Origin: Kofleriaceae bacterium
GTDB taxonomy: Bacteria; Myxococcota_A; Polyangia; Haliangiales; Haliangiaceae
Assembly: GCA_039935615.1 (NCBI GenBank)
Contig: JBDTJY010000032.1
Span: forward strand, 14,265 to 78,264
Length of the DNA stretch: 64,000 nucleotides
Direction: 5' to 3'
Below, one piece after another: positions 4,748 to 61,201 of the stretch. The position numbers were made by a program, and so were the translations under genes. A model generated the notes under the pieces. The model saw only the letters and a list, made by a program, of their open reading frames with translations, was not told where the DNA came from and did not search any database. Position 1 is the stretch's first letter. Every line of letters starts with the position of its first letter.

Positions 4748-6916
<2,169 letters not shown>

Positions 6917-28258: not shown

Positions 28259-29622
<1,364 letters not shown>

Positions 29623-29623
<1 letters not shown>

Positions 29624-32401: not shown

Positions 32402-32863
32402 GTGAGCGAGCATTTACTCGAGCTGTTCGGCCTGTACGGCGCCTGCCTCGTGATCTCGTTCGTCGCCGGGATGTTCCCGCTGGTCAGCATCGAGGCGTTC
32501 CTGATCGGCTACTGCGCGCTGCGCCCGGTGACCTGGCCCGAGTTCGTCGTGATGGTACTCCTCGGCGCGCTCGGTCATCAGATCGCGAAGACCGTGTGTT
32601 ACTTCGCCGGCATCGGCGCCCTCGAACATCGCCGGCTCAAGCCGATGATCGCGAAGTGGCAGCCGCGCATCGATCGCTGGAACAAGTATCCGTGGGGCAT
32701 CTTCTGGCTCGCGTCGATCTTCGGCTTGCCACCGATGTGGCTCCTCGGCTTCATCGCGCGGCCGCTGATGCACCTGCGGTTCCTGCCGTTCACGCTCGTG
32801 TGCTTCTTCTGCCGTGCCGGTCGCTACGCGTTCGTCGCGGCGATCCCGATGCTCGCGAAGTAG
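32402..32863 (+). CDS. Small integral membrane protein (DedA/VTT-like, YqaA-type)
   Basis: 153 aa, 4 hydrophobic segments. GTG start 10 nt after the glpD stop. The family assignment is tentative. Confidence 0.65.
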   Translation: MSEHLLELFGLYGACLVISFVAGMFPLVSIEAFLIGYCALRPVTWPEFVVMVLLGALGHQIAKTVCYFAGIGALEHRRLKPMIAKWQPRIDRWNKYPWGIFWLASIFGLPPMWLLGFIARPLMHLRFLPFTLVCFFCRAGRYAFVAAIPMLAK

Positions 32864-32870
32864 TGCTACC

Positions 32871-34229
32871 GTGGCGGGTGTGAAGCGTGTCGATGCGTCG
32901 CGCGTGCTGATCGTCGACGACGAGAAGAACATCCGCACCACGCTGACGATGTGCCTCGAGAGCATGGGCTGCACGGTCACCGGCGCGAGCACGACCGAAG
33001 CCGCACTCGCCGCGGCGGAGCGCACCGCGTTCGACCTCGCGTTCGTCGATCTGCGCCTCGGCGATGAAGACGGGATGGCGCTGCTACCGCGGTTGCTCGC
33101 CGCGCGCCCGGGGCTCGCCGCGATCGTCGTCACCGCGTACGCGACGATCGATACTGCCGTGCAGGCGATCAAGCTCGGCGCGGTCGACTACCTGCCGAAG
33201 CCGTTCACCCCGGCGCAGATCCGCTTGGTCGTCGAGCAGGTGCTCGCTCGCCGGGCGACCGAGCGCAAGGTCGCCGACCTCGAGGCGCAGCTCGCGGACG
33301 AGCTCCCCGGCATCGACCTGTCGTCGCGCGCGCCGAAGATGATCGCGGCGTTCGAGCTCGCCGGGCGCGCGGCCGCGAGCGACGCGCCGATCCTGTTGCG
33401 CGGCGAGAACGGCACCGGCAAGAGCGTACTCGCCCGCTACGTCCACGCTCGCAGCAAGCGCGCGGGTCAGAGCTACGTCACGGTCAACTGCCCGACGCTG
33501 TCCGAGGACCTGCTCGCGAGCGAGCTGTTCGGTCACGCGATCGGTGCGTTCACCGGCGCGGTACGCGATCAGTCGGGCCGCGTCGAGTCGGCCGAAGGAG
33601 GCACGCTGCTGCTCGACGAGATCGGCGAGATCACACCAGCGCTGCAGGCGAAGCTGCTGCGGTTCGTCCAGGACAAAGAGTTCGAGCGTGTCGGCGAGGC
33701 CCGCACGCGCCACGCCGACGTCCGCGTGATCGCGGCGACGAATCGCGACCTCGATGCCGATGTCAAAGCGGGGCGGTTCCGCGAGGACCTGCTGTTCCGG
33801 CTCAACGTGATCGAGATCCACGTGCCGCCGCTGCGCGAGCGCGGCGAGGACATCCTCGAGATCGCGCGCAAGTTCCTCGCGTTCTTCGCACGCGCCGCGA
33901 ATCGCCCGACCCCGACGCTCGCCCCGGATGCCGAACACGCGCTCGCGGCGTACGCGTGGCCCGGCAACGTCCGCGAGCTGCGCAACGCGATGGAGCGCGC
34001 GATCATCCTGTTTCCCGGCAACGTCGTCGGTATGGCGGCGCTGCCCGAGCGGATCGCGCCCCACCCCACGACGTCGCCACGGCTCGGCGGCGACTTCACG
34101 CTCGACCAGATCGAGCGCGAGCACATCGAGCGCGTGATCGCTCGCACCGCGACGCTCGACGATGCCGCGAGCGTGCTCGGCATCGATTCGTCGACGCTGT
34201 ATCGCAAGCGCAAGCGCTACGACGGCTGA
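32871..34229 (+). CDS. NtrC-family sigma54-dependent response regulator
   Basis: [14 protein letters not shown], Walker [16 protein letters not shown]-terminal HTH. Start is GTG 32871 or 32880. Its 3' end overlaps the 3' end of the convergent kinase by 13 nt. Confidence 0.9.
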
Positions 34230-36046
34230 GCCACGGTCTTGACCGTGAACCAGATCGTGGTGCCCGGTCCCGGGCTCTCCACCACGCCGATGTCACCGCC
34301 GTGCGCGCGCACGTTCTCGCGCGCGATGAACAGGCCGAGCCCCGCGCCACCGGCGGGCGCGCCCGGCACCCGCACGTACTTGTCGAAGATCGTCGTGCGG
34401 AACTCCGCAGGAATGCCCGGGCCCTCGTCTTGGACTTCGAACCGAACGTAGCCCGCTTGCGCCAGCGCGCGCACCGTCACCGTGCCGTTCGCCGGTGTGT
34501 AGTGCAGCGCGTTACCGAGGAGGTTCGCGAACACCAGGGCGATCCGATCGTGTTCGACCTCGACCGGCGTCATGTCGGGCAGCACCTCCGAGCGCAGCGT
34601 CACCTGGCGCTGCGCCGCGACCGAGCGCTGCGCAGCGATCGCCTCGTCGACGAGGGCTTCCGGATCCTGCGGCGCGGTCCGCATCTCGATCCGGTTCGCC
34701 TCGATCCTCGACAGGTCCAACAGCTCGTCGACGATCGATTGCAGGCGGTCGCACTCTTCGCGCGCCGCGAACACCAGGTCGGCCTGCTTCGCGGTCAACG
34801 GGCCGACGGTCTCCTCGGCGAGCAGGTGGACCGCCATCCGCAGCGACGTCAACGGGGTGCGGAACTCGTGCGCGACGGTCGCGACCAGGTCGTTGCGGAG
34901 CTCCTCGAAGCGATGCAGGCGCGTCACGTCTTGAAACACGATCGTCGCGCCGACCACATCGCCTTCGTCCGCGTAGAGCGGCGCCGCGCGCGGCAGGAAC
35001 AACCGATCGCCTTCGCTGGTCGGGACGCGCACCGCCTCGTCGAGCCCTTTCGGCACGTACGGCCCGTGACCGGCTGCGACGTGCACGCGCAGCCGCTCGA
35101 TCACGCTGCGGATCGCCGGCTCCGCGCTCGCGATGCCACCGGTCTCGGCGCGGGTCTTCAACACGGTCTCGGCCGCCTGGTTCGCGTGGCGCAGCGATCC
35201 GTCGAGCGCGACCACCACGACCGGATCCGGCAGGCTGTCGATCGTCGCCTGCGCCGCGAGCTGAGCTTCGAGCAGCTCGCCGAGCGAGCTCGCGCGATAC
35301 TTCTGGAGCCGCTCGGCCATCGTGTTGAGCTCGCGCGCGACCTCGCCGATCTCGTCGCGACTGTCGACGCGCGCGCGGACGACGAGGTCGCCTTCGCCGA
35401 GGCGCCGCGCGGTCTGGCCGAGGACCGCGAGCGGTCGCAGCACCCGGGTCGTGATGATGCTCGACGCCGCGAGGCCGAGGATCAACCCGGCGAGCGACAC
35501 CAAGACCAGCAGCGTGTTCGAGCGGTTCGCGAGCGCCTGCGCGCGATCGCTCTTCGCGATCATCGCGTCCTGGTTCATCGTCAAGATCCCGTCCGCGGTG
35601 GTCTTGACCGCGAGGAAGGCACCGAGCATCGAGTCGAAGTAGCGCTGCCCGAGCGCGAGGCCGGCCGGATCGCGCCGGACGTCCGCGATCGCCGCCGTGT
35701 ACGCGGTCCAGGCCACGCGCAGCTTCGCCGTCGCGTCGTGCTCGCCGCGCTCCGTGATGTTCGCCTCCTGCGCGGAGAGCTCCGCCTCGAAGCGCGGGAT
35801 GTTCGCGTTGATCTGATCGAGCCCCATCGTGACCTTGCCGAGGGTCACGAACGTGATGCCACTATCGATCCGCTCGGCCGCCTCCTTCATCCGCTCGGCC
35901 GCGAGCACGCTGCGATAGTTGTCCTCGAGGATGGTCTGCGACTCGCGACCGAGGTCGCGCGCGACCAGGCTGCCGACGACGATCGTCACGCCGAGTGCGA
36001 TCACCAGCGGCAACTGCGCGAGCATCAGCTTGGTGCGCATCCTCAT
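34217..36046 (-). CDS. Sensor histidine kinase (TM, four-helix-bundle-like sensor, TM, HAMP, PAS, HisKA, HATPase); last gene of the kdp string
   Basis: 609 aa from ATG 36046 (MRMRTKLMLAQLPLVIALGV...), with an ATGA overlap onto the upstream stop. H-box ATVAHEFRTPLTSL, then NLLGNALHYT, DEGPGIP, GLGLFIAREN. Confidence 0.9.
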   Translation of the reverse strand: MRMRTKLMLAQLPLVIALGVTIVVGSLVARDLGRESQTILEDNYRSVLAAERMKEAAERIDSGITFVTLGKVTMGLDQINANIPRFEAELSAQEANITERGEHDATAKLRVAWTAYTAAIADVRRDPAGLALGQRYFDSMLGAFLAVKTTADGILTMNQDAMIAKSDRAQALANRSNTLLVLVSLAGLILGLAASSIITTRVLRPLAVLGQTARRLGEGDLVVRARVDSRDEIGEVARELNTMAERLQKYRASSLGELLEAQLAAQATIDSLPDPVVVVALDGSLRHANQAAETVLKTRAETGGIASAEPAIRSVIERLRVHVAAGHGPYVPKGLDEAVRVPTSEGDRLFLPRAAPLYADEGDVVGATIVFQDVTRLHRFEELRNDLVATVAHEFRTPLTSLRMAVHLLAEETVGPLTAKQADLVFAAREECDRLQSIVDELLDLSRIEANRIEMRTAPQDPEALVDEAIAAQRSVAAQRQVTLRSEVLPDMTPVEVEHDRIALVFANLLGNALHYTPANGTVTVRALAQAGYVRFEVQDEGPGIPAEFRTTIFDKYVRVPGAPAGGAGLGLFIARENVRAHGGDIGVVESPGPGTTIWFTVKTVAQPS

Positions 36047-37191
36047 GCGTGCGACTCCTCGGTCACCGCGACGATATGGACGTCGAGGTCGGTGGCCTCG
36101 CGCAGCAGGCGCAGCGGGGCCGAGCGGCCCATCAACTGACGCCACCACGGCTGATGCGAGCGCCCGATCAAGATGTGGCCGACATCGTGCGAGCGGGCAA
36201 AGTCGATCAGTGCCGGCACCGGATCCTTCGCACGCAACCGCACGACCTCGGCGCCGAGCTCGCGCGCGAGCTCGATGTTGCCGAGCAGGTGGCGCTGCGC
36301 TTCCGAATCGATCCGCTCGGGCGCCTCGCGCGGTGTCTCGACGTAGACCACGAACCAGTCCCCCGACAACCGACCCGCCATCCGCGAGCCCTTGCGCAGC
36401 AGCATCTCGGCATGCGGCGGATACGACGACATGCACACCATCACGCGCGCATGCACGGCCCGTGGCTCGCCCGCCGCCGTGCGCGCCTTCGATTCACTCT
36501 GGCGTTCGATCGATTCGGCGACCTCGCGCAGCGCGAGCTCGCGCAGCGTGGCGAGATTCGCGTCCTTGAAGAAGTGATCCATCGCCCACGCCACCTTGTC
36601 GGCCGCGTAGATCTTGCCGGACTTGAGGCGCTCGAGCAGATCCTCGACGGCGAGGTCGAGGTTGACGACCTGGACGGCCTCCTTGAGGAAGCGATCCGGC
36701 ACGGTCTCGTGGATCGCGACGCCGGTGACCTTCATCACCACATCGTTGAGCGACTCGAGGTGCTGGATGTTGAGCGCACCGATCACGTTGATCCCAGCCG
36801 CGAGTAGCTCGATCACGTCCTGGTAACGCTTCTTGTTCTTGCTACCGGGCGCGTTGGTGTGAGGAATCTCGTCGATGACACAGATCGCCGGCTTGCGCCG
36901 CAGGATCGCATCGACGTCCATCTCCTCGATCTCGACGCCGCGATACTCGACCTTGCGGCGCCCCACGACCTCGAGGCCGGCGACCAGCGCTTCGGTCTCG
37001 GCTCGACCGTGGGTCTCGACAAAGCCGATCACGACATCGACGCCGCGCTTCGCGAGCGCGTGTGCCTCCTCGAGCATGCGATAGGTCTTGCCGACTCCGG
37101 CGGCAAACCCGATGTAGAGCTTGAGCCCGCCGCGGCGAGTGCGCTGGACCAACTCGAGGAAGTCCTCGGCGCGCGGGCGGGTGGCCGTCAC
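36043..37191 (-). CDS. kdpD: Stand-alone KdpD N-terminal sensor module (KdpD domain + Usp domain), no TM or kinase part
   Basis: 382 aa from GTG 37191 (GTGA overlap with the kdpC stop). LKLYIGFAAGVGKTYRMLEEAHALAKRGVDVVIGFVETHGRAET..., HTNAPGSKNKKRYQDV, then Usp-like RVMVCMSS...DFARSHDVGHILIGRS. Confidence 0.9.
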   Translation of the reverse strand: MTATRPRAEDFLELVQRTRRGGLKLYIGFAAGVGKTYRMLEEAHALAKRGVDVVIGFVETHGRAETEALVAGLEVVGRRKVEYRGVEIEEMDVDAILRRKPAICVIDEIPHTNAPGSKNKKRYQDVIELLAAGINVIGALNIQHLESLNDVVMKVTGVAIHETVPDRFLKEAVQVVNLDLAVEDLLERLKSGKIYAADKVAWAMDHFFKDANLATLRELALREVAESIERQSESKARTAAGEPRAVHARVMVCMSSYPPHAEMLLRKGSRMAGRLSGDWFVVYVETPREAPERIDSEAQRHLLGNIELARELGAEVVRLRAKDPVPALIDFARSHDVGHILIGRSHQPWWRQLMGRSAPLRLLREATDLDVHIVAVTEESHA

Positions 37192-37850
37192 TTTGCCAGG
37201 GTAGCTCCGCCCTCGCTCGCCAGGTGAGCTGGCCGCCCGAACTTGCGGTCGAGCGCGAGGTTGACCGCGAGCACGTTGACGCGCGGCTCGCCGAGCAAGC
37301 CGAGCTCGCGGCCGTCGGTGTTGGCGTCGATCACGGCCTGGACGCGCGCGACCTCGACGCCGCGCGCCTTCGCGATCCGCGCGGCCTGGAACCTCGCGTT
37401 GTCGGGGCTGACGTCGGGATCGAGGCCGCTCGCCGAGCGCGTCACCGCGTCGACCGGCACCCACTCGCTCGCGGTCAGGCCGTTGGTCTCGCGATAGTCG
37501 TGGGCGAGCTGGGTCACGCCGATGAACGACTCGTCGACCTCCTTGGTCGCGGGGTCATCGACCGCGCCATCGCGCAGCTTCTTCGAGGTCGGCCCGAGGT
37601 TGGTGCCACCCGAGCTCGCCGCGTCGTAGCCACTCGCCGAGGGCCGCGGCCACACGTACTCGGGTGCGGTGAAGCCCTGGCCGAGCAGCTCGGAGCCGAC
37701 CTCGTGCCCCTTGTCGTCGACGACGATCGAGCCGTTCGCACGATGCGGGAACAGCACCTGGGCGGCGCCGGTGACGACGAGTGGATAGACGAGCCCGGTG
37801 AGGACCAAGGTGACGAGCGTGGCGCGCAGCGCGGTGACGAAGGTCTCCAT
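37188..37850 (-). CDS. kdpC: K+-transporting ATPase subunit C
   Basis: 220 aa. [28 protein letters not shown]..., GGTNLGPTSKKL. ATG shares one base with the kdpB stop. Confidence 0.93.
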   Translation of the reverse strand: METFVTALRATLVTLVLTGLVYPLVVTGAAQVLFPHRANGSIVVDDKGHEVGSELLGQGFTAPEYVWPRPSASGYDAASSGGTNLGPTSKKLRDGAVDDPATKEVDESFIGVTQLAHDYRETNGLTASEWVPVDAVTRSASGLDPDVSPDNARFQAARIAKARGVEVARVQAVIDANTDGRELGLLGEPRVNVLAVNLALDRKFGRPAHLASEGGATLAK

Positions 37851-39880
37851 TACACGGCTCCGATCGCCTGGAGGACCAGGTCGATGAGCTTGATCCCCAC
37901 GAACGGCGCGACGACGCCACCGAAGCCGTAGATCACGAGCGAGCGGCGGAGGATCGCGGCGGCGCCGAGCGGCCGGTACTTCACGCCCTTCAGCGCGAGC
38001 GGGATCAAGATGATGATGATGATCGCGTTGAAGATCACGGCGGACAGCACCGCCGACAGCGGCGACGCGAGGTGCATGACGTTGAGCGGCGCGATCTGCG
38101 GATACACGCCCATGAACATCGCCGGCAGGATCGCGAAGTACTTCGCGACGTCGTTCGCGATCGAGAACGTGGTGAGCGACCCGCGTGTCATCAACAATTG
38201 CTTGCCGACCTCGACGACCTCGAGCAGCTTCGTCGGATCGGAGTCGAGGTCGACCATGTTGCCGGCCTCTTTCGCGGCCTGTGTGCCGGTGTTCATCGCG
38301 ACGCCGACATCGGCTTGCGCGAGCGCCGGCGCATCGTTCGTGCCGTCGCCGGTCATCGCGACGAGCTTGCCCTTGGCCTGCTCGTCTCGGATCAAGTTCA
38401 TCTTGGTCTCGGGCGTCGCCTCCGCGAGGAAGTCGTCGACCCCAGCCTCGGCCGCGATCGCCTTCGCGGTACGCGGGTTATCGCCGGTCACCATCACCGT
38501 GCGAATGCCCATCGCGCGGAACCGCGAGAACCGCTCGCGGATGCCCTGCTTGACGATGTCCTTCAGGTGGATCACGCCGAGCACGCGCTTGTCGTCGGAC
38601 ACGGCGAGTGGCGTGCCGCCGGTGTCGCCGATCTTGTCGGCGGCGTCTTTGACGTCGGCCGGCAGGTTACCGACGTACTTGCCGATCGCATCGACGGCGC
38701 CCTTGCGGACTTCGCGATCGGCTATATCCACACCGCTCATCCGGGTCTGCGCGGTGAACTTGATGAATGTCGCGTTCGCGATCTCGCGCGGCGGGACGCC
38801 GTAGGTGTCCTTGACGATCGCGACGATCGATCGCCCCTCGGGGGTCTCATCCGCGAGGCTCGACAACATCGCCGCCTCCGCGAGGTCCTCGATCCGCACA
38901 CCGGCCGCAGGCAGCAGTTCGCTCGCCATCCGGTTGCCGAGCGTGATCGTGCCAGTCTTGTCGAGCAGCAGCACGTCGACATCGCCCGCGGCTTCGACCG
39001 CGCGACCGCTCATCGCGATCACGTTCTTGCGCATCAAGCGATCCATCCCGGCGATGCCGATCGCCGAGAGCAACCCGCCGATCGTCGTCGGGATCAGGCA
39101 CACCAACAGCGCGACCATCACGGTCCCCGACAGGTGGACACCCGAGTAGATGCCGAGCGGCACCAGCGTCACGGTCGCGATCAGGAACACGATCGTGAGC
39201 CCGACCAGCAAGATGTGCAGCGCGATCTCGTTCGGCGTCTTCTGCCGCGACGCACCCTCGACCAGCGCGATCATCTTGTCGAGGAACGACTCGCCGGGGT
39301 CCGCCGCGATCCGGACGACGATCCGATCCGAGAGCACCTTCGTCCCACCCGTCACCGACGAGCGATCGCCGCCCGACTCGCGGATCACGGGCGCGGACTC
39401 GCCGGTGATCGCCGACTCGTCGACCGACGCGATCCCCTCGACGATCTCGCCGTCGCCGGGGATCATCTGATTCGCTTCGACGACGACGAGGTCACCCTTG
39501 CGGAGCAGCGACGCCGGCGTGAGCTCGGCCAGCTCCTTACCGTCGACGAGCTTGCGCGCGCTGGTCTCCTGCCGCATCTTGCGCAGCGAATCGGCCTGGG
39601 CCTTGCCGCGGCCTTCGGCGACCGCCTCGGCGAAGTTCGCGAACAGCACGGTGAACCACAGCCACAGTGTGATCGCGATCGTGAACCACAGCGGCGAGCT
39701 CGGCGTGCCGATCAGATCGCGCACCACGAACACCGTGGTCAGCACCGAGCCGATCATCACGACGAACATCACCGGGTTCTTGTAGAGCACCCGCGGATCG
39801 AGCTTGACGAAGCTGTCGCGGACCGCCGCGCGCAGCAGCGACGGATCGAACATCGAGATCTTCTTACTCTGGCTCGCCAT
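37850..39880 (-). CDS. kdpB: K+-transporting P-type ATPase subunit B
   Basis: 676 aa from ATG 39880 ([30 protein letters not shown]). [27 protein letters not shown]. Confidence 0.96.
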
Positions 39881-41595
39881 CACAGCACCTCGCCGCGCAG
39901 GGTCTGGAAGTGTTCGACCACCGGACCCAGCGACAGCGCCGGAAAGAACGTCAGCGCGCCGACGACCACGATGACCGCGACGAGCAGCGCCGTGAACAAC
40001 CAGCCATTCGTCGGGAACGTGCCGAGCCCGGGCGCGACGGTCTTCTTGTTGAGCATCACGCCGGCGAGGCCGAGCGCGGGCAAGATCATGAAGAACCGGC
40101 CCGCGAGCATCGCGAAGCCGAGACAGATGTTCCACCAGTCGGTGTTCGCGTCGAGACCACCGAACGCCGAGCCGTTGTTGCCGGCCGCGCTCGTGAACGC
40201 GTACAGCATCTCCGACAGGCCGTGCGAGCCGGCGTTGCCGACCGAAGAGCTGCCATAGCTCGCGACCGCCGCCCACCCGGTGAAGCAGAGGATGATCAGC
40301 GGGAACACGAGCACGTAGAGCATCGCGAGCTTCATCTCGCGGCCCTCGATCTTCTTGCCGAGATACTCCGGTGTGCGCCCGACCATCAAGCCCGCGATGA
40401 ACACCGTCAGCACGACGAAGATCAGCATCCCGTAGAGGCCGGCGCCGACGCCGCCGAGCACGACCTCGCCGAGCTGGATGTTGACCATCGGCACGAGCCC
40501 ACCGAGCGGCGTGAAGCTGTCGTGCCACGCGTTGACCGCACCGCACGAGGCGTCGGTGGTCACCGTCGCGAACAGCGCGGAGTTCGCGACGCCGAATCGG
40601 AGCTCCTTGCCCTCCAGGTTGCCGCCCGCGACCGCGAGCCCGTGCATCGCCGGGTTCGGATGCGACTCGGCCCAGTACGTCACCGCCACGCCGGCGAAGA
40701 ACAACACCGACATCGCGGCGAGCAGGACCCAGCCTTGCCGCTGGTCCTTCGCCATCCGGCCGTACGTGTACGTGAGCCCCGCGGGGATCGCGAAGATCAG
40801 CACGAGCTCGAGGAAGTTCGTGACCGCGCTCGGGTTCTCGAACGGATGGGCACTGTTCGCATTGAAGAAGCCGCCGCCGTTCGTGCCGAGCTCCTTGATC
40901 GCTTCTTGCGACGCGACCGGGCCCATCGCGATCAGTTGCTTGCCGCCCTCGAGCGTCGTGATCGAGTGGTAGCCGGCGAGGTTCTGGATCACGCCCTGCG
41001 AGACCAGGACCAGCGCGACGACGACGCAGATCGGCAGCAGCACGTAGACGATGCCGCGGATCAGGTCGACGTAGAAGTTGCCGACGCCCCGGCTGCCGTC
41101 CGGGCCGGGGCGCCGCGTGAGGCCGCGGGCGACGACGAGCGCGACACCGAGACCGGCGGCGGCCGACGTGAAGTTGTGCCACGCCAACCCGGCCATCTGG
41201 GTGAAGTAGCTCATCGTCGTCTCGGGGACGTACGACTGCCAGTTGGTGTTCGTCGTGAAGCTCGCGGCGGCGTTGAACGACAGCGCGGCCGGCACGTTGC
41301 CGAGGTGCTGCGGGTTGAGCGGCAGCGACCCCTGCGTGCGCTGGATCAGATACGTCACGATCAGGCCGAGCGCGCTGAACACGAGCATCGCGATCGCGTA
41401 CTGCAACCACGATTGCTCGCGCGACGCGCGCAGCCCGCACGACCGCAACAGGCCGCGCTCGAGCCGGCCGAGCGTGCGCGGTAGTGGCCGCGTGTCGCCC
41501 TCGAACACGCGAAACATGTACGCGCCGAGCGGCTTCGTGAGCGCGACGATCACGAGGAAGAAGCAGATGATCTGCAGCCAGCCGTTGAACGTCAT
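39880..41595 (-). CDS. kdpA: K+-transporting ATPase subunit A
   Basis: 571 aa polytopic membrane protein. [27 protein letters not shown]... Typical KdpA length and start. Confidence 0.95.
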
Positions 41596-41684
41596 CAGAA
41601 CTGCTCCGGCCCGAGCAAGGCGTAGACGAGATAGACGGCGACGAGCACCGCGACGACGAGCCCGAGCAGATATTCGGTGGACAT
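41595..41684 (-). CDS. kdpF: K+-transporting ATPase subunit F (29 aa)
   Basis: [33 protein letters not shown] lies 6 nt upstream of the ATG. The stop shares one base with the kdpA ATG. Confidence 0.85.
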
Positions 41685-41770
41685 CACACGCTCCGGTCCA
41701 GCGAGCGCGCGTAGACCACCGCGACGGCGAAGAACGCAGCGGTCACGATCAAGAACACGACATCGGCCAT
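41684..41770 (-). CDS. Unannotated 28-codon hydrophobic ORF, KdpF-like single TM helix, coupled to kdpF
   Basis: My translation: MADVVFLIVTAAFFAVAVVYARSLDRSV. 26 of 28 sense codons end in G/C. Its TGA shares one base with the kdpF ATG (TGATG). GGGGTGA lies just upstream of its ATG. Confidence 0.45.
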   Translation of the reverse strand: MADVVFLIVTAAFFAVAVVYARSLDRSV

Positions 41771-41784
41771 TTTCACCCCACTCG

Positions 41785-41800
41785 TGCAGCACGAGTGCCA
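41785..41800 (-). promoter_or_regulatory. Candidate sigma54 (-24/-12) promoter TGGCAC-TCGTG-CTGCA for the kdp string
   Basis: The minus strand reads TGGCACTCGTGCTGCA. The GG and GC dinucleotides have the exact consensus spacing (consensus TGGCAC-N5-TTGCW). The motif is embedded in a 9-1-9 palindrome at 41779..41797. Predicted TSS is about 41772..41776. Confidence 0.55.
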
Positions 41801-41912
41801 CCACTCAGATCGCGGGAACTACTCGGGATGTGCCCCCTGTTCGGATCGCGGAGGCGGGCATTTCGCATGACCACGAACGAGGCATCGTGCAAAGCGCAGC
41901 CTGGGCGTTTCT

Positions 41913-41965
41913 GATCAAGAGGAGATCAAGGCCTTTACGGATTCTTGATCGTGGAGTCGATCTTG
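41913..41965. promoter_or_regulatory. Heptamer repeats GATCAAG (x2, 11-bp register), inverted CTTGATC and GATCTTG in the kdp/kimA-like divergent region
   Basis: gatcaag at 41913..41919 and 41924..41930. cttgatc at 41944..41950. gatcttg at 41959..41965. These lie about 115-165 bp upstream of the sigma54 motif and 15-67 bp upstream of the transporter ATG. Confidence 0.4.
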
Positions 41966-41979
41966 CTGATGCCGGTTGG

Positions 41980-43962
41980 ATGCGCGCCCTCGCCCATCGG
42001 CTGTTCGGTCGAGCTCGTGACCTTCGCGATCCGAGCATCTTTCATCAGATGAGCCTCGTCGCGTTCCTCGCGTGGGTCGGGCTCGGCGCGGATGGCTTGT
42101 CATCGTCGTCGTACGGTCCCGAAGAAGCGTTCAAGGCGCTCGGTCACTGGACGCCCGCCGGCACGTTCGTCCCCGATCACGCGTACCTCGCGGTGTTCCT
42201 CGCCGGCGCGATCGCGGCGACGGTCTTCATCATCTCGTGGAGCTATCGCCGGATCATCGAAGAGTTCCCGCACGGCGGTGGCGGCTACATCGTCGCGACC
42301 AAGCACCTCGGGCCGTACGTCGGCGCGCTGTCGGGCTCGGCGCTGCTCGTCGACTACGTGCTGACGATCGCGATCTCGCTTGCCTCGGGCGCGGACGCGA
42401 TCTTCAACTTCCTGCCCGATCGCTGGCTACCGTACAAGCTCGCGTGCGTGCTCGCCGTGCTCGCACTCCTCACGCTGATGAACCTACGCGGCGTGAAGGA
42501 ATCGGTGACCATCCTGATGCCGATCTTCATCATCTTCCTCGTCACCCATGCGTTCTTGATCTTTGGCGTGATCGGCACCCACGTCGGGCAGGTCGGCGAG
42601 ATCGCGCACACGGTCTCCGACGGCGCGCACTCGCACCTCAGCGCGGTCGGCTTCATCGGCGTCGCGCTCGTGTTCATGCGCGCGTTCTCCCTCGGCGGCG
42701 GCACGTTCACCGGCATCGAGGCGGTCTCGAATGGCATCGGCATCATGCGCGAGCCGCGGGTCCGCACCGCGAAGCGCACGATGCTGTTGATGGCGACGTC
42801 GCTCGCGATCACGGCGAGCGGCATCTTGCTCGCGTATCTCCTGCTCCACGTCGTGCCCGAGCACGGCAAGACGATGAACGGCCTGCTCGCCGAGAAGTTC
42901 GTCGGCGACGGCGCGCTCGGCACGATCTTCGTGATCGTGACGATGGTGTCCGAAGGCGCGCTGCTGTTCGTCGCCGCGCAGGCCGGCTTCCTCGACGGAC
43001 CGCGCGTGATGGCAAACATGGCGCTCGACAAGTGGCTGCCGAGCCGGATGGCCGCGCTGTCCGAGCAGCTCACGATGCACAACGGCGTCTATCTGATGGC
43101 GGTCGCCGCGGCGCTCGTCCTGGTCTACACGCATGGCTCGGTCGACGCGCTCGTCGTGATGTACAGCATCAACGTGTTCATCACGTTCACGCTATCGAAC
43201 GTCGCGATGATCCGTCACGCCGCCCACGCACGTGAGGGCCGCTGGCGCCGCGCGATCTTCGTCCACAGCCTCGCCGCGACGGTGTGCGCGATGATCCTGG
43301 TCGTCACGCTGGTCGAGAAGTTCACCGAGGGCGGCTGGATCACGAGCGTGATCACCGCGACGCTGGTCGTCGTGTGCATCGCGATCCGCGCGCATTATCG
43401 CCGGGTCGGCACGAAGGTCGCCGAGCTCTCGAAGCAGCTCGACCTCGACATCCCGCCGCCGGCCGAGCTGTACACGACCGCCGAGCTCGATCCGACGAAG
43501 TCGACCGCGGTCGTCCTCGCCGGCGGCTACAGCGGTCTCGGCCTGCACACGCTGATGCAGATTCCGCGCGTGTTCCCGAATCAGTTCGAGCAGGTCGTGT
43601 TCCTCGCGGTCGGCGTGATCGATGCCGGCGTGTTCAAGGGCAAGGACGAGGTCGATCGGATGCGAGCGAAGATCGACGCTGACCTCGACAAGTACGTCAC
43701 GTTCGCGCGCACGCACATGGGCTGGGCCGCCGAGAACGACTCCGCGATCGGCACCGAAGCGGTCAGCGAGCTCGATAGCCTGTGCCGGCAGCTCGCGCTG
43801 CGGTTCCCGCGATCCGTGTTCTTCGCAGGCAAGCTCGTGTTCCAGCACGACAGTTGGTACCAGCGCATCCTGCACAACGAGACCGCGATCGCGGTCGAGC
43901 GTCGCCTGCACTTCGCGGGGTTACCGATGATCGTGCTGCCGATCCGGATCATGGGATCTTGA
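41980..43962 (+). CDS. APC-superfamily transporter with cytoplasmic C-terminal domain, KimA (YdaO)-like K+/H+ symporter candidate
   Basis: 660 aa from ATG 41980 (MRALAHRLFGRARDL...). Motifs I associate with KimA: SSSYGPEEA, FPHGGGGYIVATKHLG, SALLVDYVLTIAISLASGADAI, FTGIEAVSNGIGIMREP, C-terminal WYQRILHNETA. The track ORF 41677.. is over-extended. Confidence 0.8.
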   Translation: MRALAHRLFGRARDLRDPSIFHQMSLVAFLAWVGLGADGLSSSSYGPEEAFKALGHWTPAGTFVPDHAYLAVFLAGAIAATVFIISWSYRRIIEEFPHGGGGYIVATKHLGPYVGALSGSALLVDYVLTIAISLASGADAIFNFLPDRWLPYKLACVLAVLALLTLMNLRGVKESVTILMPIFIIFLVTHAFLIFGVIGTHVGQVGEIAHTVSDGAHSHLSAVGFIGVALVFMRAFSLGGGTFTGIEAVSNGIGIMREPRVRTAKRTMLLMATSLAITASGILLAYLLLHVVPEHGKTMNGLLAEKFVGDGALGTIFVIVTMVSEGALLFVAAQAGFLDGPRVMANMALDKWLPSRMAALSEQLTMHNGVYLMAVAAALVLVYTHGSVDALVVMYSINVFITFTLSNVAMIRHAAHAREGRWRRAIFVHSLAATVCAMILVVTLVEKFTEGGWITSVITATLVVVCIAIRAHYRRVGTKVAELSKQLDLDIPPPAELYTTAELDPTKSTAVVLAGGYSGLGLHTLMQIPRVFPNQFEQVVFLAVGVIDAGVFKGKDEVDRMRAKIDADLDKYVTFARTHMGWAAENDSAIGTEAVSELDSLCRQLALRFPRSVFFAGKLVFQHDSWYQRILHNETAIAVERRLHFAGLPMIVLPIRIMGS

Positions 43963-43997
43963 CGCCATCTTGATGTGACCGGAGCTATCCATGTGGT

Positions 43998-44204
43998 GTG
44001 GACCGCGACGACCGAACCATCTACCTCGCACTCGTGTTGATCGGCATGCTGCCGCTGATCGGTGCCATCGTGATCGGCGGTCCTGTCGGCTCGGGCGTGA
44101 CCGTGTGCTTCTTGATGGTCGTATTCGGGATCGCGGGGGTAGTCCATGACACCTTCCACCACCGGCCACCGCAGGCGCGCGTCTCTCGCGATCGCGACCG
44201 CTAG
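43998..44204 (+). CDS. Possible 68-aa two-TM membrane protein
   Basis: Track ORF with a GTG start. Hydrophobic segments IYLALVLIGMLPLIGAIVIGG and VTVCFLMVVFGIAGVV. It overlaps the first 59 nt of the next gene if that gene starts at 44146. Codon bias does not discriminate. Confidence 0.3.
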   Translation: MDRDDRTIYLALVLIGMLPLIGAIVIGGPVGSGVTVCFLMVVFGIAGVVHDTFHHRPPQARVSRDRDR

Positions 44205-45399
44205 GCGCTACGGCGTCGCCGTCCTCGGCGTGGTCGCGGCGACCGTGGCCGCGAGCGCGTTGGGCGATCACATTACCGTGGCCGATCAGGCGATGCTGTT
44301 CCTGCCGGCGATCCTCCTCGCCGCGCTCGGTGGGCGCGGCCCGAGCCTCGCCGCGGCTGCGCTGTCGGTCGCCGCGTTCGACTTCTTCTTCGTCGAGCCG
44401 CGCCTCACGTTCGCGGTCTCGGACCTCCACTCGATCGTCACGTTCGTCGTGATGTTCGTGGTCGGTAGCGCGATCGGCACGTTGGTCGCGCGGCTGCGTG
44501 CCGCCGAGGAGGCCAGCCGCGAGCGCGAGCGTCGCACCGCCGCGTTGCTCGCGTTCACGCGCGATGCCGCCGCGGCGACCGACGAGGCCGGGGTCGTCGC
44601 GGCGGTCGAGGCACATCGAGTCGCCTCCGATCAGCCGGCGTTCGTCGACGCGGTCGCCCGTCAGGCGGAGGTCGCGATCGGCCGTTTGCAGCTCGCCACG
44701 GTCGCGCGCGATGCCGCGTTGCGAGCCAAGGCCGAGGAGCTGCGCAGCGCGCTGCTGTCGTCGGTGTCACACGATCTGCGGACGCCGCTCGCGGCGATCA
44801 CCGGCATGGCGACGTCGCTGCGCGATCGCGTGGGCGCGAACCTGGAGCTCGACACGATCATCGAGGAGGCGCAGCGCCTGAGCCGACTGCTGACGAACCT
44901 GCTCGCGATCACGAAGGTCGAGAGCGGCGCCGCACCCCGCCGCGACTGGGTACCGCTCGAAGAGATCGTCGGCTCGGCGCTCGCGCGGTTGGACCACGAG
45001 CTCGCCGATCGCACGATCACCGTCGACGTGCCGGCGCTCGCCCACATCGATCCGATCCTCGTCGAGCAGTTGCTGCTCAACCTGCTCGAGAACGCGGCGA
45101 AGCACACCCCGCCCGGGACGCCGATCGACGTGCGCGCCTCGCGCGGTGTCGATCGCGCGGTCCTCGAGGTCTCCGATCGCGGCCCGGGGATTCCCGCCGA
45201 CGCGCGCGCGCACGTGTTCGACAAGTTCTTCCGCGGCAACGCGTCGGTCCCCGGCGCCGGCCTCGGCCTCGCGGTGTGTCGCGGCATCGCGGCCGCCCAC
45301 CTGGGTGGCATCGAGGCGCTGCCGCGCGATGGTGGCGGCACGCGGTTCGTCGCCTGGTTTCCCGACGCCGAGCCGGTGCCGGCGGAGGTGCTGCCATGA
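44146..45399 (+). CDS. kdpD: Histidine kinase corresponding to the C-terminal half of KdpD (DUF4118 TM domain, linker, HisKA, HATPase)
   Basis: 417 aa. TM block LGVVAATVAASALGDHITVADQAMLFLPAILLAALGG...FDFFFVEP. H-box SSVSHDLRTPLAAI, then LLENAAKHTP, DRGPGIP, GAGLGLAVCRGI. It has no KdpD-N or Usp part. The start could be slightly downstream. Confidence 0.85.
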   Translation: MTPSTTGHRRRASLAIATARRYGVAVLGVVAATVAASALGDHITVADQAMLFLPAILLAALGGRGPSLAAAALSVAAFDFFFVEPRLTFAVSDLHSIVTFVVMFVVGSAIGTLVARLRAAEEASRERERRTAALLAFTRDAAAATDEAGVVAAVEAHRVASDQPAFVDAVARQAEVAIGRLQLATVARDAALRAKAEELRSALLSSVSHDLRTPLAAITGMATSLRDRVGANLELDTIIEEAQRLSRLLTNLLAITKVESGAAPRRDWVPLEEIVGSALARLDHELADRTITVDVPALAHIDPILVEQLLLNLLENAAKHTPPGTPIDVRASRGVDRAVLEVSDRGPGIPADARAHVFDKFFRGNASVPGAGLGLAVCRGIAAAHLGGIEALPRDGGGTRFVAWFPDAEPVPAEVLP

Positions 45400-46082
45400 C
45401 GCGGACGATCCTCGTCGTCGAAGATGAAGCGCCGATGCGGCGGTTCCTCGCGTCGGCGTTGACCAGCCACGGGTTTCGCGTCGAGGAGGCCGCCACCCTC
45501 GCGCACGCCGAGCGGATCGCGACCGAGACTCGCCCCGCGGCGATCCTGCTCGACCTCGGCCTCCCCGATGGCGATGGTCTCGACCTGTTGCGCCGGCTGC
45601 GCGAGTGGTCGAACGCACCGGTGATCGTGCTGTCGGCGCGCGATCGCGAGGACGACAAGGTGCTCGCGCTCGACGCCGGCGCCGACGACTACCTGACCAA
45701 GCCGTTCGGCACGAGCGAGTTGCTGGCGCGGATCCGCGTCGCGCTCCGCCACGTCCACGGCCAGACCGTGCCCGACGATCCGATGATCGTGGTCGGGCCG
45801 ATCGCGATCGATCAGGCGCGCCACGAGGTCAGCGTCGACGGGGCGAGCATTCACCTGACGCCGATCGAGTTCCGCCTCGTGGTCCTGCTCGCGCGTCACG
45901 CCGGCAAGGTGCTCACGCATCGCCAACTGTTGAACGACGTGTGGGGCCCGCGCAACGCGCATCAGAATCACTACCTGCGCGTTCACATGGCGGCGTTGCG
46001 CCGCAAGATCGAGGTCGATCCGGCGCGGCCGCGGTGGCTGACGACCGAAGCGGGCATCGGCTATCGCCTGAAGGACGAGTAG
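45396..46082 (+). CDS. kdpE: OmpR-family response regulator KdpE
   Basis: 228 aa from ATG 45396 (ATGA overlap). ILVVEDE, LLDLGLPDGDG, VIVLSARD, winged-helix LTPIEFRLVVLLARHAGKVLTHRQLL..VWG. Confidence 0.9.
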   Translation: MTRTILVVEDEAPMRRFLASALTSHGFRVEEAATLAHAERIATETRPAAILLDLGLPDGDGLDLLRRLREWSNAPVIVLSARDREDDKVLALDAGADDYLTKPFGTSELLARIRVALRHVHGQTVPDDPMIVVGPIAIDQARHEVSVDGASIHLTPIEFRLVVLLARHAGKVLTHRQLLNDVWGPRNAHQNHYLRVHMAALRRKIEVDPARPRWLTTEAGIGYRLKDE

Positions 46083-46084
46083 CG

Positions 46085-46471
46085 CTACGCGGTGATCGCG
46101 GCGATTCGCTTCGCGAGCTGCTTCTGCTCGTTGCTCGGCTCGGCCGTCTGCATCGCCACGACCTTCGCGAGGTCGCCTTCGATCACGAGCTCGCCGAGCA
46201 TGAACGCCTGGACGCCGGCGGCGGCATCGGCCTCGACGAACAGCTTCTTCGCGAGCGGTTCGTCGAGCGTGATCGTCGCGTCGGCCTTGGCCCGATGGCC
46301 CTGCGCGACGATGCCGTCCTTCAAGAACAGCGGGACGTCGCCGGTCGGCCGCTTGATCGTGACGTTGACCTCGACCGCTCTCATCGGCGCCGGCAGGTTG
46401 AGATCGCCGGCCGCCGCGATCAATTGCTGGACCTCGGCGAACCACGGATCGGACAGGAACGGATGGGGCAT
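46085..46471 (-). CDS. SCP2 sterol-binding domain protein
   Basis: 128 aa from ATG 46471 (MPHPFLSDPWFAEVQQL...). ...AGVQAFMLGELVIEGDLAKVVAM is typical of the SCP2 C-terminus. Confidence 0.75.
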   Translation of the reverse strand: MPHPFLSDPWFAEVQQLIAAAGDLNLPAPMRAVEVNVTIKRPTGDVPLFLKDGIVAQGHRAKADATITLDEPLAKKLFVEADAAAGVQAFMLGELVIEGDLAKVVAMQTAEPSNEQKQLAKRIAAITA

Positions 46472-46643
46472 TGCGCGCACGCTACCCAATTCTCGCGCGC
46501 AGAGGTTCGCTCAAGATGCTGTGACGCAGATTGCGGAAATACCCTGCAAATCTCGACCGAGTGCGACGGCGAGCGCGCATTCGGTCAAGAGCGTTCAGCG
46601 CGTGGTTCGCGATGCGCAGCGGGCTCGTGGCATACGAGATGCG

Positions 46644-48206
46644 GTGAGGAAACACGTATGGTGGCTCTTGTTCTCGGTTGGTTGCGCGACGCCTCTCAAC
46701 GATCCGCCGCTGCCCACGTCTGATCCTCGACCGGACTTTCGCGAGGCGCAAGCGCTGACGCCGTCGCTACGTCCACCCGTGACGAGCGGGACGTGGACGC
46801 CGGTCGCCGCCTCCGCGGCATTCGCGGGCTCGAACCCGCTGTTACTTCCCGACGGCACGGTCATGCTGCAGGACACCGGCGCCGCGGACTGGTGGAAGCT
46901 CACGCCCGACAACACGGGGAGCTACATCAACGGCACGTTCACCCAACTCGCCTCCACGGGCTCCTACGCTCCGTTGTATTACGCCGAAGCGGTGCTGCCC
47001 GATGGCCGCGTGATCGTCGAAGGAGGCGAGTACCTCTCGAACGCCCAGGTCGACACGACGCAGGGCCAGATCTACAACCCCGCGACGAACACCTGGGCGA
47101 CGATCACGCCCCCGAGCGGTTGGTCGACGATCGGCGACGCCAGTGGCGTCCTGCTCCCGAACGGCACGTTCCTGCTGTCGTCATGTTGCGATCCTGGCGG
47201 TCCCCAGGCGCTCCTCAATGCGACCGCGCTCACCTGGACCTCGACGGGCACGGGCAAGGCGGACTTCAACGACGAGGAGGGCTGGACGCTACTTCCCAAC
47301 GGCAAGCTCCTCACGGTCGATGCGAACAACACGACGAAGCCGCTGAACTGGGAGACCTACGATCCAGCGACCGGCGCGTGGACGAGCGACGGGAACGTTC
47401 CGGTGTCGCTCGTCGACGCTGCGTCTCACGAGATCGGCCCCGCGATCCTGCGGCCCGATGGCACCGTGCTCGCGACGGGAGCCACCGGACACAACGCGGT
47501 CTTCGACTCCTCGACGATGACGTGGTCCGCGGCGCCCGACTTCCCGACCGGCAACGACATCGCGGACGGGCCCGGTGCGCTCCTGCCCGACGGCAACGTG
47601 CTCGTCGCGGTTAGCCCCGGCGTGTTCCAGACCGGCACGTCGTTCTTCGAATGGGACGGCGCGACGTTCACGATGGTCGCCGCACCCTCGGGCGCGGTGA
47701 GCGATAGCTCGTATCAGGTCAACTTCTTGGTCCTGCCCACGGGTCAGATCCTCGAGACCGATCAGGTCGGCAACATCGAGGTCTACACGCCCGCCGGTGC
47801 TCCGGACCCGAGCTGGTCGCCTGTCATCACCGCGATCCCCGTCGAGGTGAGCGCGAGCAACCCGAACCCGCCGACGGCGCCCGCCAACGCGGTACCGCTC
47901 GTCACGCTCCACCGCGGCCGCACGTACCAGGTGTGGGCCGATCGGCTGAACGGCCTGTCGCAAGGCACGTATTACGGCGACGACACGCAGGCCGCCACGA
48001 ACTTCCCGATCGTGCGGATCACGAACGCGGTGACCGGGCACGTCGCGTTCGCGCGCAGCCACCACAACAGCACCTACGCGATCGGACCCAGCGTCTCCGG
48101 CACGACAAAGTTCGACGTCCCGGCGACGCTCGAGACCGGTACCGCGACGATGTCGCTCGTCACCAATGGCATCGCCTCACCGGCGATCACCGTGGAGATC
48201 GACTAA
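46644..48206 (+). CDS. Kelch-type beta-propeller lipoprotein with C-terminal Ig-like (galactose/glyoxal-oxidase E-set-like) domain
   Basis: GTG 46644 gives MRKHVWWLLFSVGC (short lipoprotein signal). Repeated LPDG/LPNG...G blades. The track ORF 46092.. is over-extended through the antisense of the SCP2 gene. Confidence 0.75.
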   Translation: MRKHVWWLLFSVGCATPLNDPPLPTSDPRPDFREAQALTPSLRPPVTSGTWTPVAASAAFAGSNPLLLPDGTVMLQDTGAADWWKLTPDNTGSYINGTFTQLASTGSYAPLYYAEAVLPDGRVIVEGGEYLSNAQVDTTQGQIYNPATNTWATITPPSGWSTIGDASGVLLPNGTFLLSSCCDPGGPQALLNATALTWTSTGTGKADFNDEEGWTLLPNGKLLTVDANNTTKPLNWETYDPATGAWTSDGNVPVSLVDAASHEIGPAILRPDGTVLATGATGHNAVFDSSTMTWSAAPDFPTGNDIADGPGALLPDGNVLVAVSPGVFQTGTSFFEWDGATFTMVAAPSGAVSDSSYQVNFLVLPTGQILETDQVGNIEVYTPAGAPDPSWSPVITAIPVEVSASNPNPPTAPANAVPLVTLHRGRTYQVWADRLNGLSQGTYYGDDTQAATNFPIVRITNAVTGHVAFARSHHNSTYAIGPSVSGTTKFDVPATLETGTATMSLVTNGIASPAITVEID

Positions 48207-60160: not shown

Positions 60161-61189
60161 TTAGTGCGACGAGCCGCAGGTGAACGTCGCCGTGATCTCC
60201 GGCGCCGTCGCCGCGGCGTTGTATGCAGTGCACGCGCTGCCGACGAGCTTGATCGTATGCGCGTCGACCGCGACCCAATCGGTCGTGTACGCCAGCGCCG
60301 TGCCGTTCGACTTCACGGTGCCGAGCGAGGCCTGGGCGACATCGATCGTGCCGTCGATCGTCAGCTTGCAATCGAGCACCGCGTGGAACACGGACGTATA
60401 GCCGGCGAGGACGTCCGCCGCGCTGTTGCTCGTGTAGTACGGCACGTCGGTGGTCGAGCCAAGGCCGGCGTTCGCGATCTTCTGCAGGAACGTGGTGTCG
60501 ACGCCGCCGAGGCCGATCACGTAGAGCGAGATGTGCTTGTCGTTGTAGTTCGCGAGCGTCTGATCGACCGCTTGCTGCGTGTGATCGACGTTGGGGTTGC
60601 CGCACGAGTTCGGCGTCCCGTCGGTGGCGAGCACGATGACCTTTGGATCGCCGGTCACGTTGCCGAAGCCGTCGTGCAGCGAGAGCAGTGCTTCGGGCAA
60701 CGGATCGGTGCCGTTGATGTAGCCCATGTCGATCGCGTTCTTCACGCCCGTCATGTTGTTGATCGTGCAAGCGCTCGCGTGGAATGACGGACACGTGCCC
60801 GAGCTAAGATAGACCGACGCGCCGAACTGGGCCTTCGTCTGGAGGCCGGTGAGCAGCGGCGTCGTGCCGCTATACAGCGCCCTCTGCACGGCGTCGTACT
60901 TGCTATTCGCGCCGCTCATACCGTCGCCCATCGTCCCCGAGCCGTCGACCACGAGCTGGATCAACGGCGTCACCGGCGTCACCGTGAACGCGTTCGCACG
61001 ACAGCTTCCACCACCGGAGCCACCGTTCTCGATCGGTGGATCGGTATCGGTGTACGTGGAGATGCTCGGCGCGACGCACGCGGTGAACAACATCGAGACA
61101 ACAGCGAGCCGCAACACGCTTAGAGAATACAGCAAGCGAGGAACCCGCGCTCGAAAGTTCGACGACGCTGGCCTACACACATCGCGCAT
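60161..61189 (-). CDS. vWA-domain lipoprotein
   Basis: Lipobox SMLFTAC. MIDAS-like LVVDGSGTMG and VLATDGTPN. Conserved C-terminal domain ending TATFTCGSSH. The start may be the internal GTG 61117 (MLRLAVVSMLFTAC), which is conserved in the paralogous copy. Confidence 0.8.
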   Translation of the reverse strand: MRDVCRPASSNFRARVPRLLYSLSVLRLAVVSMLFTACVAPSISTYTDTDPPIENGGSGGGSCRANAFTVTPVTPLIQLVVDGSGTMGDGMSGANSKYDAVQRALYSGTTPLLTGLQTKAQFGASVYLSSGTCPSFHASACTINNMTGVKNAIDMGYINGTDPLPEALLSLHDGFGNVTGDPKVIVLATDGTPNSCGNPNVDHTQQAVDQTLANYNDKHISLYVIGLGGVDTTFLQKIANAGLGSTTDVPYYTSNSAADVLAGYTSVFHAVLDCKLTIDGTIDVAQASLGTVKSNGTALAYTTDWVAVDAHTIKLVGSACTAYNAAATAPEITATFTCGSSH

Positions 61190-61201
61190 CTCGCGACACT
61201 T

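Follow-up and report, generated by a model that had tools for sequence, protein, structure and literature searches.

Potassium uptake in a Kofleriaceae genome: a kdp operon behind a sigma-54 element, back to back with a KdpE-like system that may control kimA

How is potassium uptake controlled when two importers lie back to back, each beside a two-component system? This question is raised by a locus in a 64-kb stretch of the genome of an uncultured soil myxobacterium, a Kofleriaceae bacterium (the whole stretch of 64,000 nucleotides (nt) is called the window below). In this locus, a kdp operon is separated by a shared region of 209 bp from kimA, which encodes a KimA-family importer. KdpD is not the canonical single chain here: its N-terminal half (382 amino acids (aa)) and its transmembrane-DHp/CA half (417 aa) are the products of separate genes on opposite strands. 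Existing models of K+ homeostasis are those of E. coli (KdpDE and a sigma-70 promoter) and of Firmicutes (cyclic di-AMP (c-di-AMP) riboswitches for kimA). The original prediction saw here a circuit with two inputs at kdp. By comparative inference, on which all claims below are founded, we come to another answer, which we consider reasonably probable: two modules stand back to back, with a sigma-54 promoter and its activator serving kdp, and a KdpE-like system serving kimA together with its own operon.

The raw open reading frame (ORF) lists are noisy because the window has a G+C content of about 68%. The genes were therefore chosen by the GC content of third codon positions (GC3) and then confirmed by domain search (Pfam, NCBIfam). 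The gene map of both strands proposed at the outset was fully borne out, every gene and junction being present as first described, and the domains KdpD, Usp, DUF4118, HAMP, PAS_4 and Sigma54_activat were all matched in Pfam. The kdp side consists of the following features:

41857-41895, minus strand: candidate activator-binding region, an imperfect inverted repeat TTTGCACGA ... ATGCGAAATGC, 57-95 nt upstream of the -24 element
41785-41800, minus strand: sigma-54 -24/-12 element TGGCACtcgtgCTGCA, found by motif scan, its -12 GC being about 15 nt ahead of the ORF28 ATG
41684-41770, minus strand: ORF28, a hydrophobic peptide of 28 aa, MADVVFLIVTAAFFAVAVVYARSLDRSV, the first cistron of the operon
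41595-41684, minus strand: kdpF, 29 aa (PF09604, E=7e-7, and TIGR02115, both over the cut-off)
39880-41595, minus strand: kdpA (PF03814, E=8e-237)
37850-39880, minus strand: kdpB, P-type ATPase subunit (Pfam)
37188-37850, minus strand: kdpC (PF02669, E=5e-66)
36043-37191, minus strand: KdpD-N plus Usp as a stand-alone protein of 382 aa (PF02702, E=2e-90)
34217-36046, minus strand: histidine kinase with HAMP, PAS_4, HisKA and HATPase_c (Pfam), the last gene of the kdp string
32814-34229, plus strand: ORF of an NtrC-family sigma-54 activator with Response_reg, Sigma54_activat (E=1e-62) and HTH_8 (Pfam)

Reading the sequence confirmed that each minus-strand junction is a start/stop overlap of 1 or 4 nt: 1-nt TGATG overlaps join ORF28 to kdpF, kdpF to kdpA, kdpA to kdpB and kdpB to kdpC, and 4-nt overlaps join kdpC to kdpD-N (GTGA) and kdpD-N to the kinase (ATGA). 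The activator most probably starts at GTG 32871 or 32880, and its stop (34229) overlaps that of the kinase (34217) convergently by 13 nt. The pump is complete, since the Pfam and NCBIfam scores exceed the cut-offs for all four of KdpF, KdpA, KdpB and KdpC. The KdpB translation contains DKTGT and, in an alignment to E. coli KdpB (7NNL/6HRA), retains ITGESAPV, in which lies the TGES whose Ser162 is phosphorylated in E. coli.

To follow these genes through relatives, an alignment of the kinase was scanned against one genome per species, which gave 40 Myxococcota loci (50-76% identity) onto which all window proteins were mapped. For the kimA side, a KimA alignment scanned against metagenomes gave 80 loci (49-87% identity). 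The individual loci are denoted by L numbers. The E. coli kdp locus served as the reference for KdpD and KdpE alignments. An exact database look-up of the HAMP/PAS kinase yielded a single 2.4-kb read-assembly contig, whose context was uninformative. What these loci show directly is which genes and junctions are there, which motifs, and how these are conserved and co-vary with the neighbourhood.

The results clearly showed that the last two genes of the kdp string and the activator form a stable trio. KdpD-N lies directly upstream of the HAMP/PAS kinase in all 39 evaluable Myxococcota loci, and the activator is found beside both of them in 37 of 38, in three arrangements: convergent after the kinase, co-directional after the kinase, or within the operon between kdpC and kdpD-N (17 loci). 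The association of the activator with glpD and a neighbouring 153-aa ORF is inconstant, being broken in several relatives in which the link to the kinase persists. Since the linkage of the trio persists across arrangements while the glpD association varies, we conclude that the activator belongs with kdp. This settles the caveat, raised at the outset, that it might belong with glpD and the so-called DedA-like gene. The predicted link of the two-component pair to kdp is thus upheld by the survey of about 40 Myxococcota loci despite the changing position of the activator, and the pair stays with KdpD-N. As for the "DedA-like" label of the 153-aa ORF (32402-32863, plus strand), Pfam and NCBIfam gave no match for it; the ORF is kept beside glpD in relatives with 50-71% identity, and some of them have a paralogue nearby (30-33%). 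Upstream of glpD (28259-29623, plus strand) there is a gene for another sigma-54 activator, whose N-terminal domain is FHA/Yop-YscD; many relatives have a homologue in the same place.

The HAMP/PAS kinase consists of TM1 (a transmembrane segment), an outer segment of about 145 aa, TM2 and then HAMP, the transmembrane and outer segments being read by eye from the translation. We did not adopt its JGI label "KinB", which rests on nothing more than the domain architecture; in NCBIfam, none of the equivalogs attained its cut-off.

A sigma-54 motif ahead of the operon had also been predicted, and the scan bears this out. The element TGGCACtcgtgCTGCA, running from 41800 to 41785 on the minus strand, is the only exact TGGCAC-N6-TGCA within the window, where 0.08 would be expected. 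When both strands were scanned, just two matches of at least 10/12 were found, this element and one at 61692-61707 (minus strand), and there was no match of comparable strength near glpD. The motif recurs with scores of 8-10/12 at the same position, 13-16 nt before the ATG of the first small ORF, in 18 loci including the window; the background of 0.15 per kb applies to scores of at least 9, and several Polyangia copies, scoring 8, lie below that threshold. In L004, L011 and L012 the motif is found about 1.5-1.7 kb upstream of kdpA, as expected ahead of the porin-like gene that these loci carry there. The scan gave no motif of 8 or above for L032 and L039, and nothing ahead of the porin-like gene of L021. 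The second strong motif of the window, TGGCTCGTGGCTTGCT (61692-61707), precedes a 138-aa ORF without a family match and a gene for a VWA-domain protein (60161-61618, minus strand).

The element is accompanied by upstream repeats (TTTGCACGA / TGCGARATGCA), placed 54-93 nt before the GG of the motif across loci. They form a perfect inverted repeat GATTTGCACGA-N15-TCGTGCAAATC in L002, and ten Polyangia-type loci have TGCGAGATGCA at about -54 from the GG (eight at -53 to -55, one at -65), with TGCGTTTCGCG at -86/-87 in nine of the ten. Most kdp-bearing loci conserve both the -24/-12 element and the repeats. Promoter, repeats and trio are all retained in L037, which is devoid of kdpFABC.

The first cistron, ORF28, has no family in Pfam or NCBIfam. 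A hydrophobic peptide of 27-28 aa is nonetheless encoded just ahead of kdpF in L002-L040 and L108 as well, and despite variation in the DNA it retains the pattern M-x-D/E-L/V-x-F...FF...Y-x-R-x-x-D/E-R in Kofleriaceae and Polyangia as well as in a more distant lineage. The peptide could be an extra small subunit of Kdp. A porin-like (beta-barrel) gene is frequent in these K+ loci: it lies upstream of kdp in L004, L011, L012, L021 and L039, and between kimA and kdpD-N in L018-L020. The L018 copy matches BBP2/OmpL-like families in Pfam, and the others are 23-30% similar to it; the window has no such gene.

The plus strand, divergent from kdp, carries the second set of features:

41914-41930, minus strand: extra inverted KdpE-like direct repeat CTTGATctcctCTTGAT, facing kdp, about 114 bp upstream of the -24 element
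41932-41949, plus strand: box 1, cCTTTACggatTCTTGAT, a 7-4-7 direct repeat, 30 nt before the kimA ATG
41980-43962, plus strand: kimA, a K+ importer of the KimA family (KUP/APC), with KimA 6S3K as its sole PDB relative (E=7e-55)
43957-43974, plus strand: box 2, TCTTGACgccaTCTTGAT, overlapping the kimA stop, 23 nt before orf68
43998-44204, plus strand: orf68, a conserved peptide of 68 aa with two apparent hydrophobic segments
44146-45399, plus strand: KdpD C-terminal-type kinase DUF4118-HisKA-HATPase_c, 417 aa (Pfam)
45396-46082, plus strand: KdpE-like regulator of the OmpR family, joined to the DUF4118 kinase by an ATGA overlap

In the alignment of the importer to 6S3K, all eight K+-site residues listed in the KimA literature (D36, Y43, D117, T121, S125, T230, E233, Y377) are conserved. 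The alignment ends at residue 486 of the query, and the last approximately 174 residues (about 487-660) are unmatched, yet conserved among relatives. The importer had been called low-affinity in type. This label is wrong, as B. subtilis KimA is described in the literature as a high-affinity transporter, and the idea that high- and low-affinity uptake are coordinated here finds no support. In B. subtilis, kimA is under a c-di-AMP riboswitch; no Rfam match was obtained anywhere in the window, and no ydaO/c-di-AMP riboswitch before kimA or kdp.

The possible 68-aa membrane protein of the original prediction proved to be conserved as a peptide. It is kept in L002, L003, L006, L008, L018-L020 and L093, where it always precedes the kinase, and has no domain-family match (Pfam, NCBIfam). 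If the kinase starts at ATG 44146, the two genes overlap by 59 nt. The DUF4118 kinase is devoid of KdpD-N, Usp and GAF. It aligns only to residues 426-536 and 641-881 of E. coli KdpD, so that 537-640 (GAF) has no counterpart, and its best NCBIfam family is KdpD with 251 bits, under the equivalog cut-off of 1123 bits (next family, 123 bits). Over its full length, the regulator shares 55% identity with E. coli KdpE. Its best NCBIfam family is KdpE (NF007820) with 281 bits, under the cut-off of 325 (next family, 191 bits). Directly past kdpE, an SCP2-domain ORF (46085-46489, minus strand) overlaps a long Kelch-motif ORF (46092-48206, plus strand); both are coding-like in GC3, and gene calls there need caution.

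What ties this system to kimA is the position of the boxes. An 18-bp element, TCTTTACGGnTTCTTGAT, is found 21-30 nt before the kimA ATG with 0-1 mismatches in 9/9 kimA-cluster loci (the window and 8 relatives), including L018-L021, where kimA is not adjacent to kdpF. Equivalents of box 2 are present in L002, L006, L008 and L018-L020. The element is made of two 7-bp direct repeats with a 4-bp spacer, and such a 7-4-7 direct-repeat geometry is of the OmpR/PhoB-family type. This arrangement, with a similar T-rich half-site, is also that of the E. coli KdpE site (PMC3264566), which reads TTTTTATacttTTTTTAC in the genome. CTTKAY-N5-CTTKAY occurs 3 times in the window against 0.01 expected. In the related loci, 1.55 Mb in all, this degenerate pattern has 20 matches, where about 0.2 would be expected by our own estimate from base composition. 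All 20 precede kimA (the inverted window copy being counted with the kimA upstream region), orf68/kinase/kdpE, the kinase-KdpE pair found in L012 or, in one case, the activator gene in L015. Conserved boxes thus precede kimA and orf68-kinase-kdpE and not the kdpFABC promoter, the sole kdp-facing copy being specific to the window, and this tells against the two inputs at kdp that had been proposed. We also considered the box itself as a -35/-10 pair and rejected this, as no conserved -10 was obtained.

The metagenomic loci extend the association. In 18 of the 80 loci, KimA has as neighbours a KdpE-like regulator and a kinase, either of the KdpD-C type or a full-length KdpD, in varied gene orders, and in 5-6 more the KdpD-N/kinase/activator trio, or the activator alone, stands beside it. 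L111 and L116 have a sigma-54 motif 59 nt before KimA. The box recurs before a small ORF and KimA even in a lineage with only 53% KimA identity, whose kdp operon likewise starts with a 28-aa ORF and has the -24/-12 motif. Of the two KdpE genes in L093, the KimA-linked one is 79% identical to that of the window and the one linked to a canonical full-length KdpD 59%.

The two halves of KdpD thus keep different company: the HAMP/PAS kinase is the constant partner of the N-terminal half, and the transmembrane-DHp/CA half goes with KdpE and KimA. That the KdpD sensor is unbundled, as predicted, holds insofar as its halves are encoded by separate genes; they look like parts of two different circuits, not of one reassembled sensor. 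The KdpD-N/Usp protein is 45% identical to residues 7-376 of E. coli KdpD, and its best NCBIfam family is "KdpD-like non-kinase potassium sensor" (390 bits, under the 550 cut-off). Its Walker A, GFAAGVGKT (G-X5-GKT), and Walker B, IDE (VIDEIPH), are intact and align to structure 2R8R and to E. coli KdpD. The N-domain of KdpD is an atypical serine kinase, and when K+ is high it halts the pump by phosphorylating KdpB at Ser162 (Silberberg et al. 2024, PMC11018627). Most likely, the protein of the window is a KdpB Ser162 kinase, a co-sensor for the HAMP/PAS kinase, or both. The trio is also found without nearby kdpFABC (L018-L020, L014, L016, L024, L030, L036-L038), thus suggesting a sensory role of KdpD-N beyond KdpB phosphorylation. 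In some loci the trio adjoins a KimA-type or other APC permease in place of kdpFABC (L014), and L011 carries an inserted APC permease between kdpC and kdpD-N. P0042, a database protein of 923 aa, was considered as a fusion of KdpD-N with the kinase and rejected, being a frameshifted read-through of the ATGA junction after "...DFARSH".

Several observations weigh against a clean separation of the two modules, and some of them favour the view that both two-component systems converge on the kdp promoter, with kdp and kimA jointly controlled through the shared 209-bp region. The kdp/kimA intergenic region is common to both operons, and the extra repeat at 41914-41930 points to kdp. In L012 a kinase-KdpE pair lies co-directionally at the tail of the kdp operon, with tandem box copies before it. 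In L015 a KdpE-like repeat CTTGACgcgatCTTGAT (5088-5104, minus strand) is placed about 45 nt before the NtrC-type activator gene, which hints at a cascade from KdpE through the activator to kdp in that genome. Because of these three features (the inverted repeat, the L012 pair and the L015 box), some cross-talk of KdpE to kdp is conceivable. Full convergence on kdp nevertheless appears rather unlikely to us. The kdp-facing repeat is not kept in the closest relatives, none of L002, L003, L006 and L008 having a full repeat there. The spacing of box 1 is held constant with respect to the kimA ATG (21-30 bp), whereas it varies from about 109 to 186 bp with respect to the sigma-54 element. Furthermore, in Polyangia the sigma-54 element and the activator accompany kdp operons whose loci contain no KdpE, and the kimA cluster retains its boxes without an adjacent kdpF (L018-L021). 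It should also be borne in mind that the genome was viewed through the window alone, in which no rpoN is visible.

The closeness of the boxes to start codons (21-30 nt) is a further difficulty for the two-module reading, as it requires near-leaderless mRNAs or a non-standard role of the box. All three candidate promoters (41770-41800, 41949-41980, 43974-43998) lie about 15-30 nt from start codons, with the spacing conserved in relatives, so that little or no leader would be left on their mRNAs. A sigma-70-type -10/-35 could not be defined for kimA, and scans for consensus sigma-70 promoters and intrinsic terminators did not rise above chance. One may regard the 18-bp repeat before kimA as the core of a promoter or as bound by some unrelated regulator, the adjacency of KimA and KdpE reflecting shared function only, especially since L091, L092 and L094 have the box and no KdpE in the available flanks. 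These flanks are short, however (about 2-5 kb each), and a second copy of the box precedes orf68-kinase-kdpE, tandem copies precede the kinase-KdpE pair of L012, and the geometry matches that of the E. coli KdpE site; we therefore hold this explanation to be quite unlikely. Highly improbable, in our judgement, is a classical split KdpD in which the KdpD-N/Usp protein reassembles with the DUF4118 kinase and kdp is driven by KdpE, while other targets, for example glpD and the 153-aa ORF, fall to the HAMP/PAS kinase and the NtrC-type regulator. The two proteins do jointly cover E. coli KdpD minus the GAF region, the regulator has 55% identity to E. coli KdpE, and a published survey (PMC11018627) found KdpD/Usp with a separate TM/GAF/DHpCA kinase more often than any other split form. 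Yet the kdpD-N stop overlaps the gene of the HAMP/PAS kinase, which it always adjoins, even in many loci without a DUF4118 kinase; the link of the activator to glpD and the 153-aa ORF is the one that breaks; the conserved sigma-54 element precedes kdp, with no equally strong match near glpD; and the KdpE-like boxes stand at kimA and orf68.

Returning to two modules back to back, we infer the phosphotransfer partners, the binding of the motifs and the signals sensed as follows. In the kdp module, the operon-encoded HAMP/PAS kinase would phosphorylate the NtrC-type regulator, which would bind the upstream repeats and activate the sigma-54 promoter of ORF28-kdpFABC-kdpD(N/Usp)-kinase. The kinase and KdpD-N would then be under positive feedback, being encoded in the operon that their regulator activates. 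At sufficient K+, KdpD-N/Usp would switch the pump off via phosphorylation of KdpB, and perhaps pass a cytoplasmic signal to the kinase. In the kimA module, the membrane-only KdpD-type kinase, together with orf68, would signal to the KdpE-like regulator by phosphorylating it, and the regulator would bind the 7-4-7 repeats before kimA and orf68-kinase-kdpE, thereby inducing KimA and regulating its own synthesis.

Tentatively, as a possibility of nearly even weight, we go one step further. KdpD may have been split and its halves given to different transporters, such that the serine-kinase/Usp half went to the HAMP/PAS-sigma-54 control of Kdp, while the membrane-DHp/CA half, with orf68 and a KdpE paralogue, became a dedicated KimA switch. 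In many uncultured soil bacteria, KimA importers would then be part of the KdpE regulon or, in certain lineages, of the one governed by the Kdp-linked sigma-54 activator.

The locus and its approximately 120 relatives suggest, beside the E. coli and Firmicutes models, a third pattern of K+ homeostasis in soil Myxococcota and other uncultured bacteria, in which Kdp is under sigma-54/NtrC-type control with a separate KdpD serine-kinase module and KimA is under KdpE-type control. If this is true, the KdpE regulon extends to a second transporter family, and we are dealing with a natural case in which the parts of a split sensor kinase have different tasks. The analysis supplies cis-elements that can be tested (the -24/-12 element, the upstream repeats and the 7-4-7 boxes), and the conserved membrane peptides of 28 and 68 aa are candidate accessory subunits. 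In the literature, of which our coverage is incomplete, we found no report of two-component control of kimA, nor of sigma-54 control of kdp in Myxococcota. The comparison with published systems suggests that the kdp side has a described precedent, in D. vulgaris, and that the KdpE-like link to KimA is the part for which no description was found.

That precedent corrects the claim that the kdp wiring had not been described. In D. vulgaris Hildenborough, DVU3334, annotated as a sigma-54-dependent response regulator, targets its own operon, upstream of which it binds, as found by DNA-affinity-purified chip (DAP-chip) (Rajeev et al. 2011, PMC3333781). The operon runs kdpFABC-DVU3336 (K+ sensor domain plus Usp)-DVU3335 (sensory-box kinase)-DVU3334, and its split kinase was remarked upon in that work (PMC3333781). 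Likened by gene order and annotation, DVU3334-DVU3339 and the window have the same architecture: kdpFABC, an ORF for KdpD-N/Usp, a PAS/sensory-box kinase and a sigma-54 regulator. The regulator gene is convergent in the window and co-cistronic in D. vulgaris, and Polyangia relatives of the window carry it inside the operon; the window adds the 28-aa first cistron and the adjacent KdpE-type system with its KimA importer.

Split forms of KdpD, too, have been catalogued, in a survey of 5495 species (PMC11018627), which includes cases where a short KdpD/Usp chain has been preserved downstream of the pump while a separate two-component system controls kdp (PMC11018627). Like the stand-alone KdpD/Usp serine kinases of Deinococcus, Anabaena and Alicyclobacillus (PMC11018627), the protein of the window is short, follows kdpC, has the Walker A/B motifs and a KdpB TGES target, and goes with separate two-component control of transcription. 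It differs from them in that its stop overlaps the start of the HAMP/PAS kinase, and in that the pair occurs without kdpFABC in L018-L020, L030 and L036-L038.

The E. coli KdpD/KdpE-kdpFABC system shares with the window the pump subunits and recognizable regulators (45% identity for KdpD-N/Usp, 38% for DHp/CA and 55% for KdpE), and the candidate KdpE box has the same tandem-repeat geometry. In the window, however, KdpD is split and its GAF domain lost, a sigma-54 element and an NtrC-type activator replace the KdpE-activated sigma-70 kdp promoter, and the boxes precede kimA and not kdp. As to KimA itself, the importer belongs to the same transporter family as B. subtilis KimA (6S3K) and has the eight K+-coordinating residues in common with it, whereas the riboswitch that controls kimA in B. 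subtilis apparently gives way in the window to a KdpE-like two-component system.

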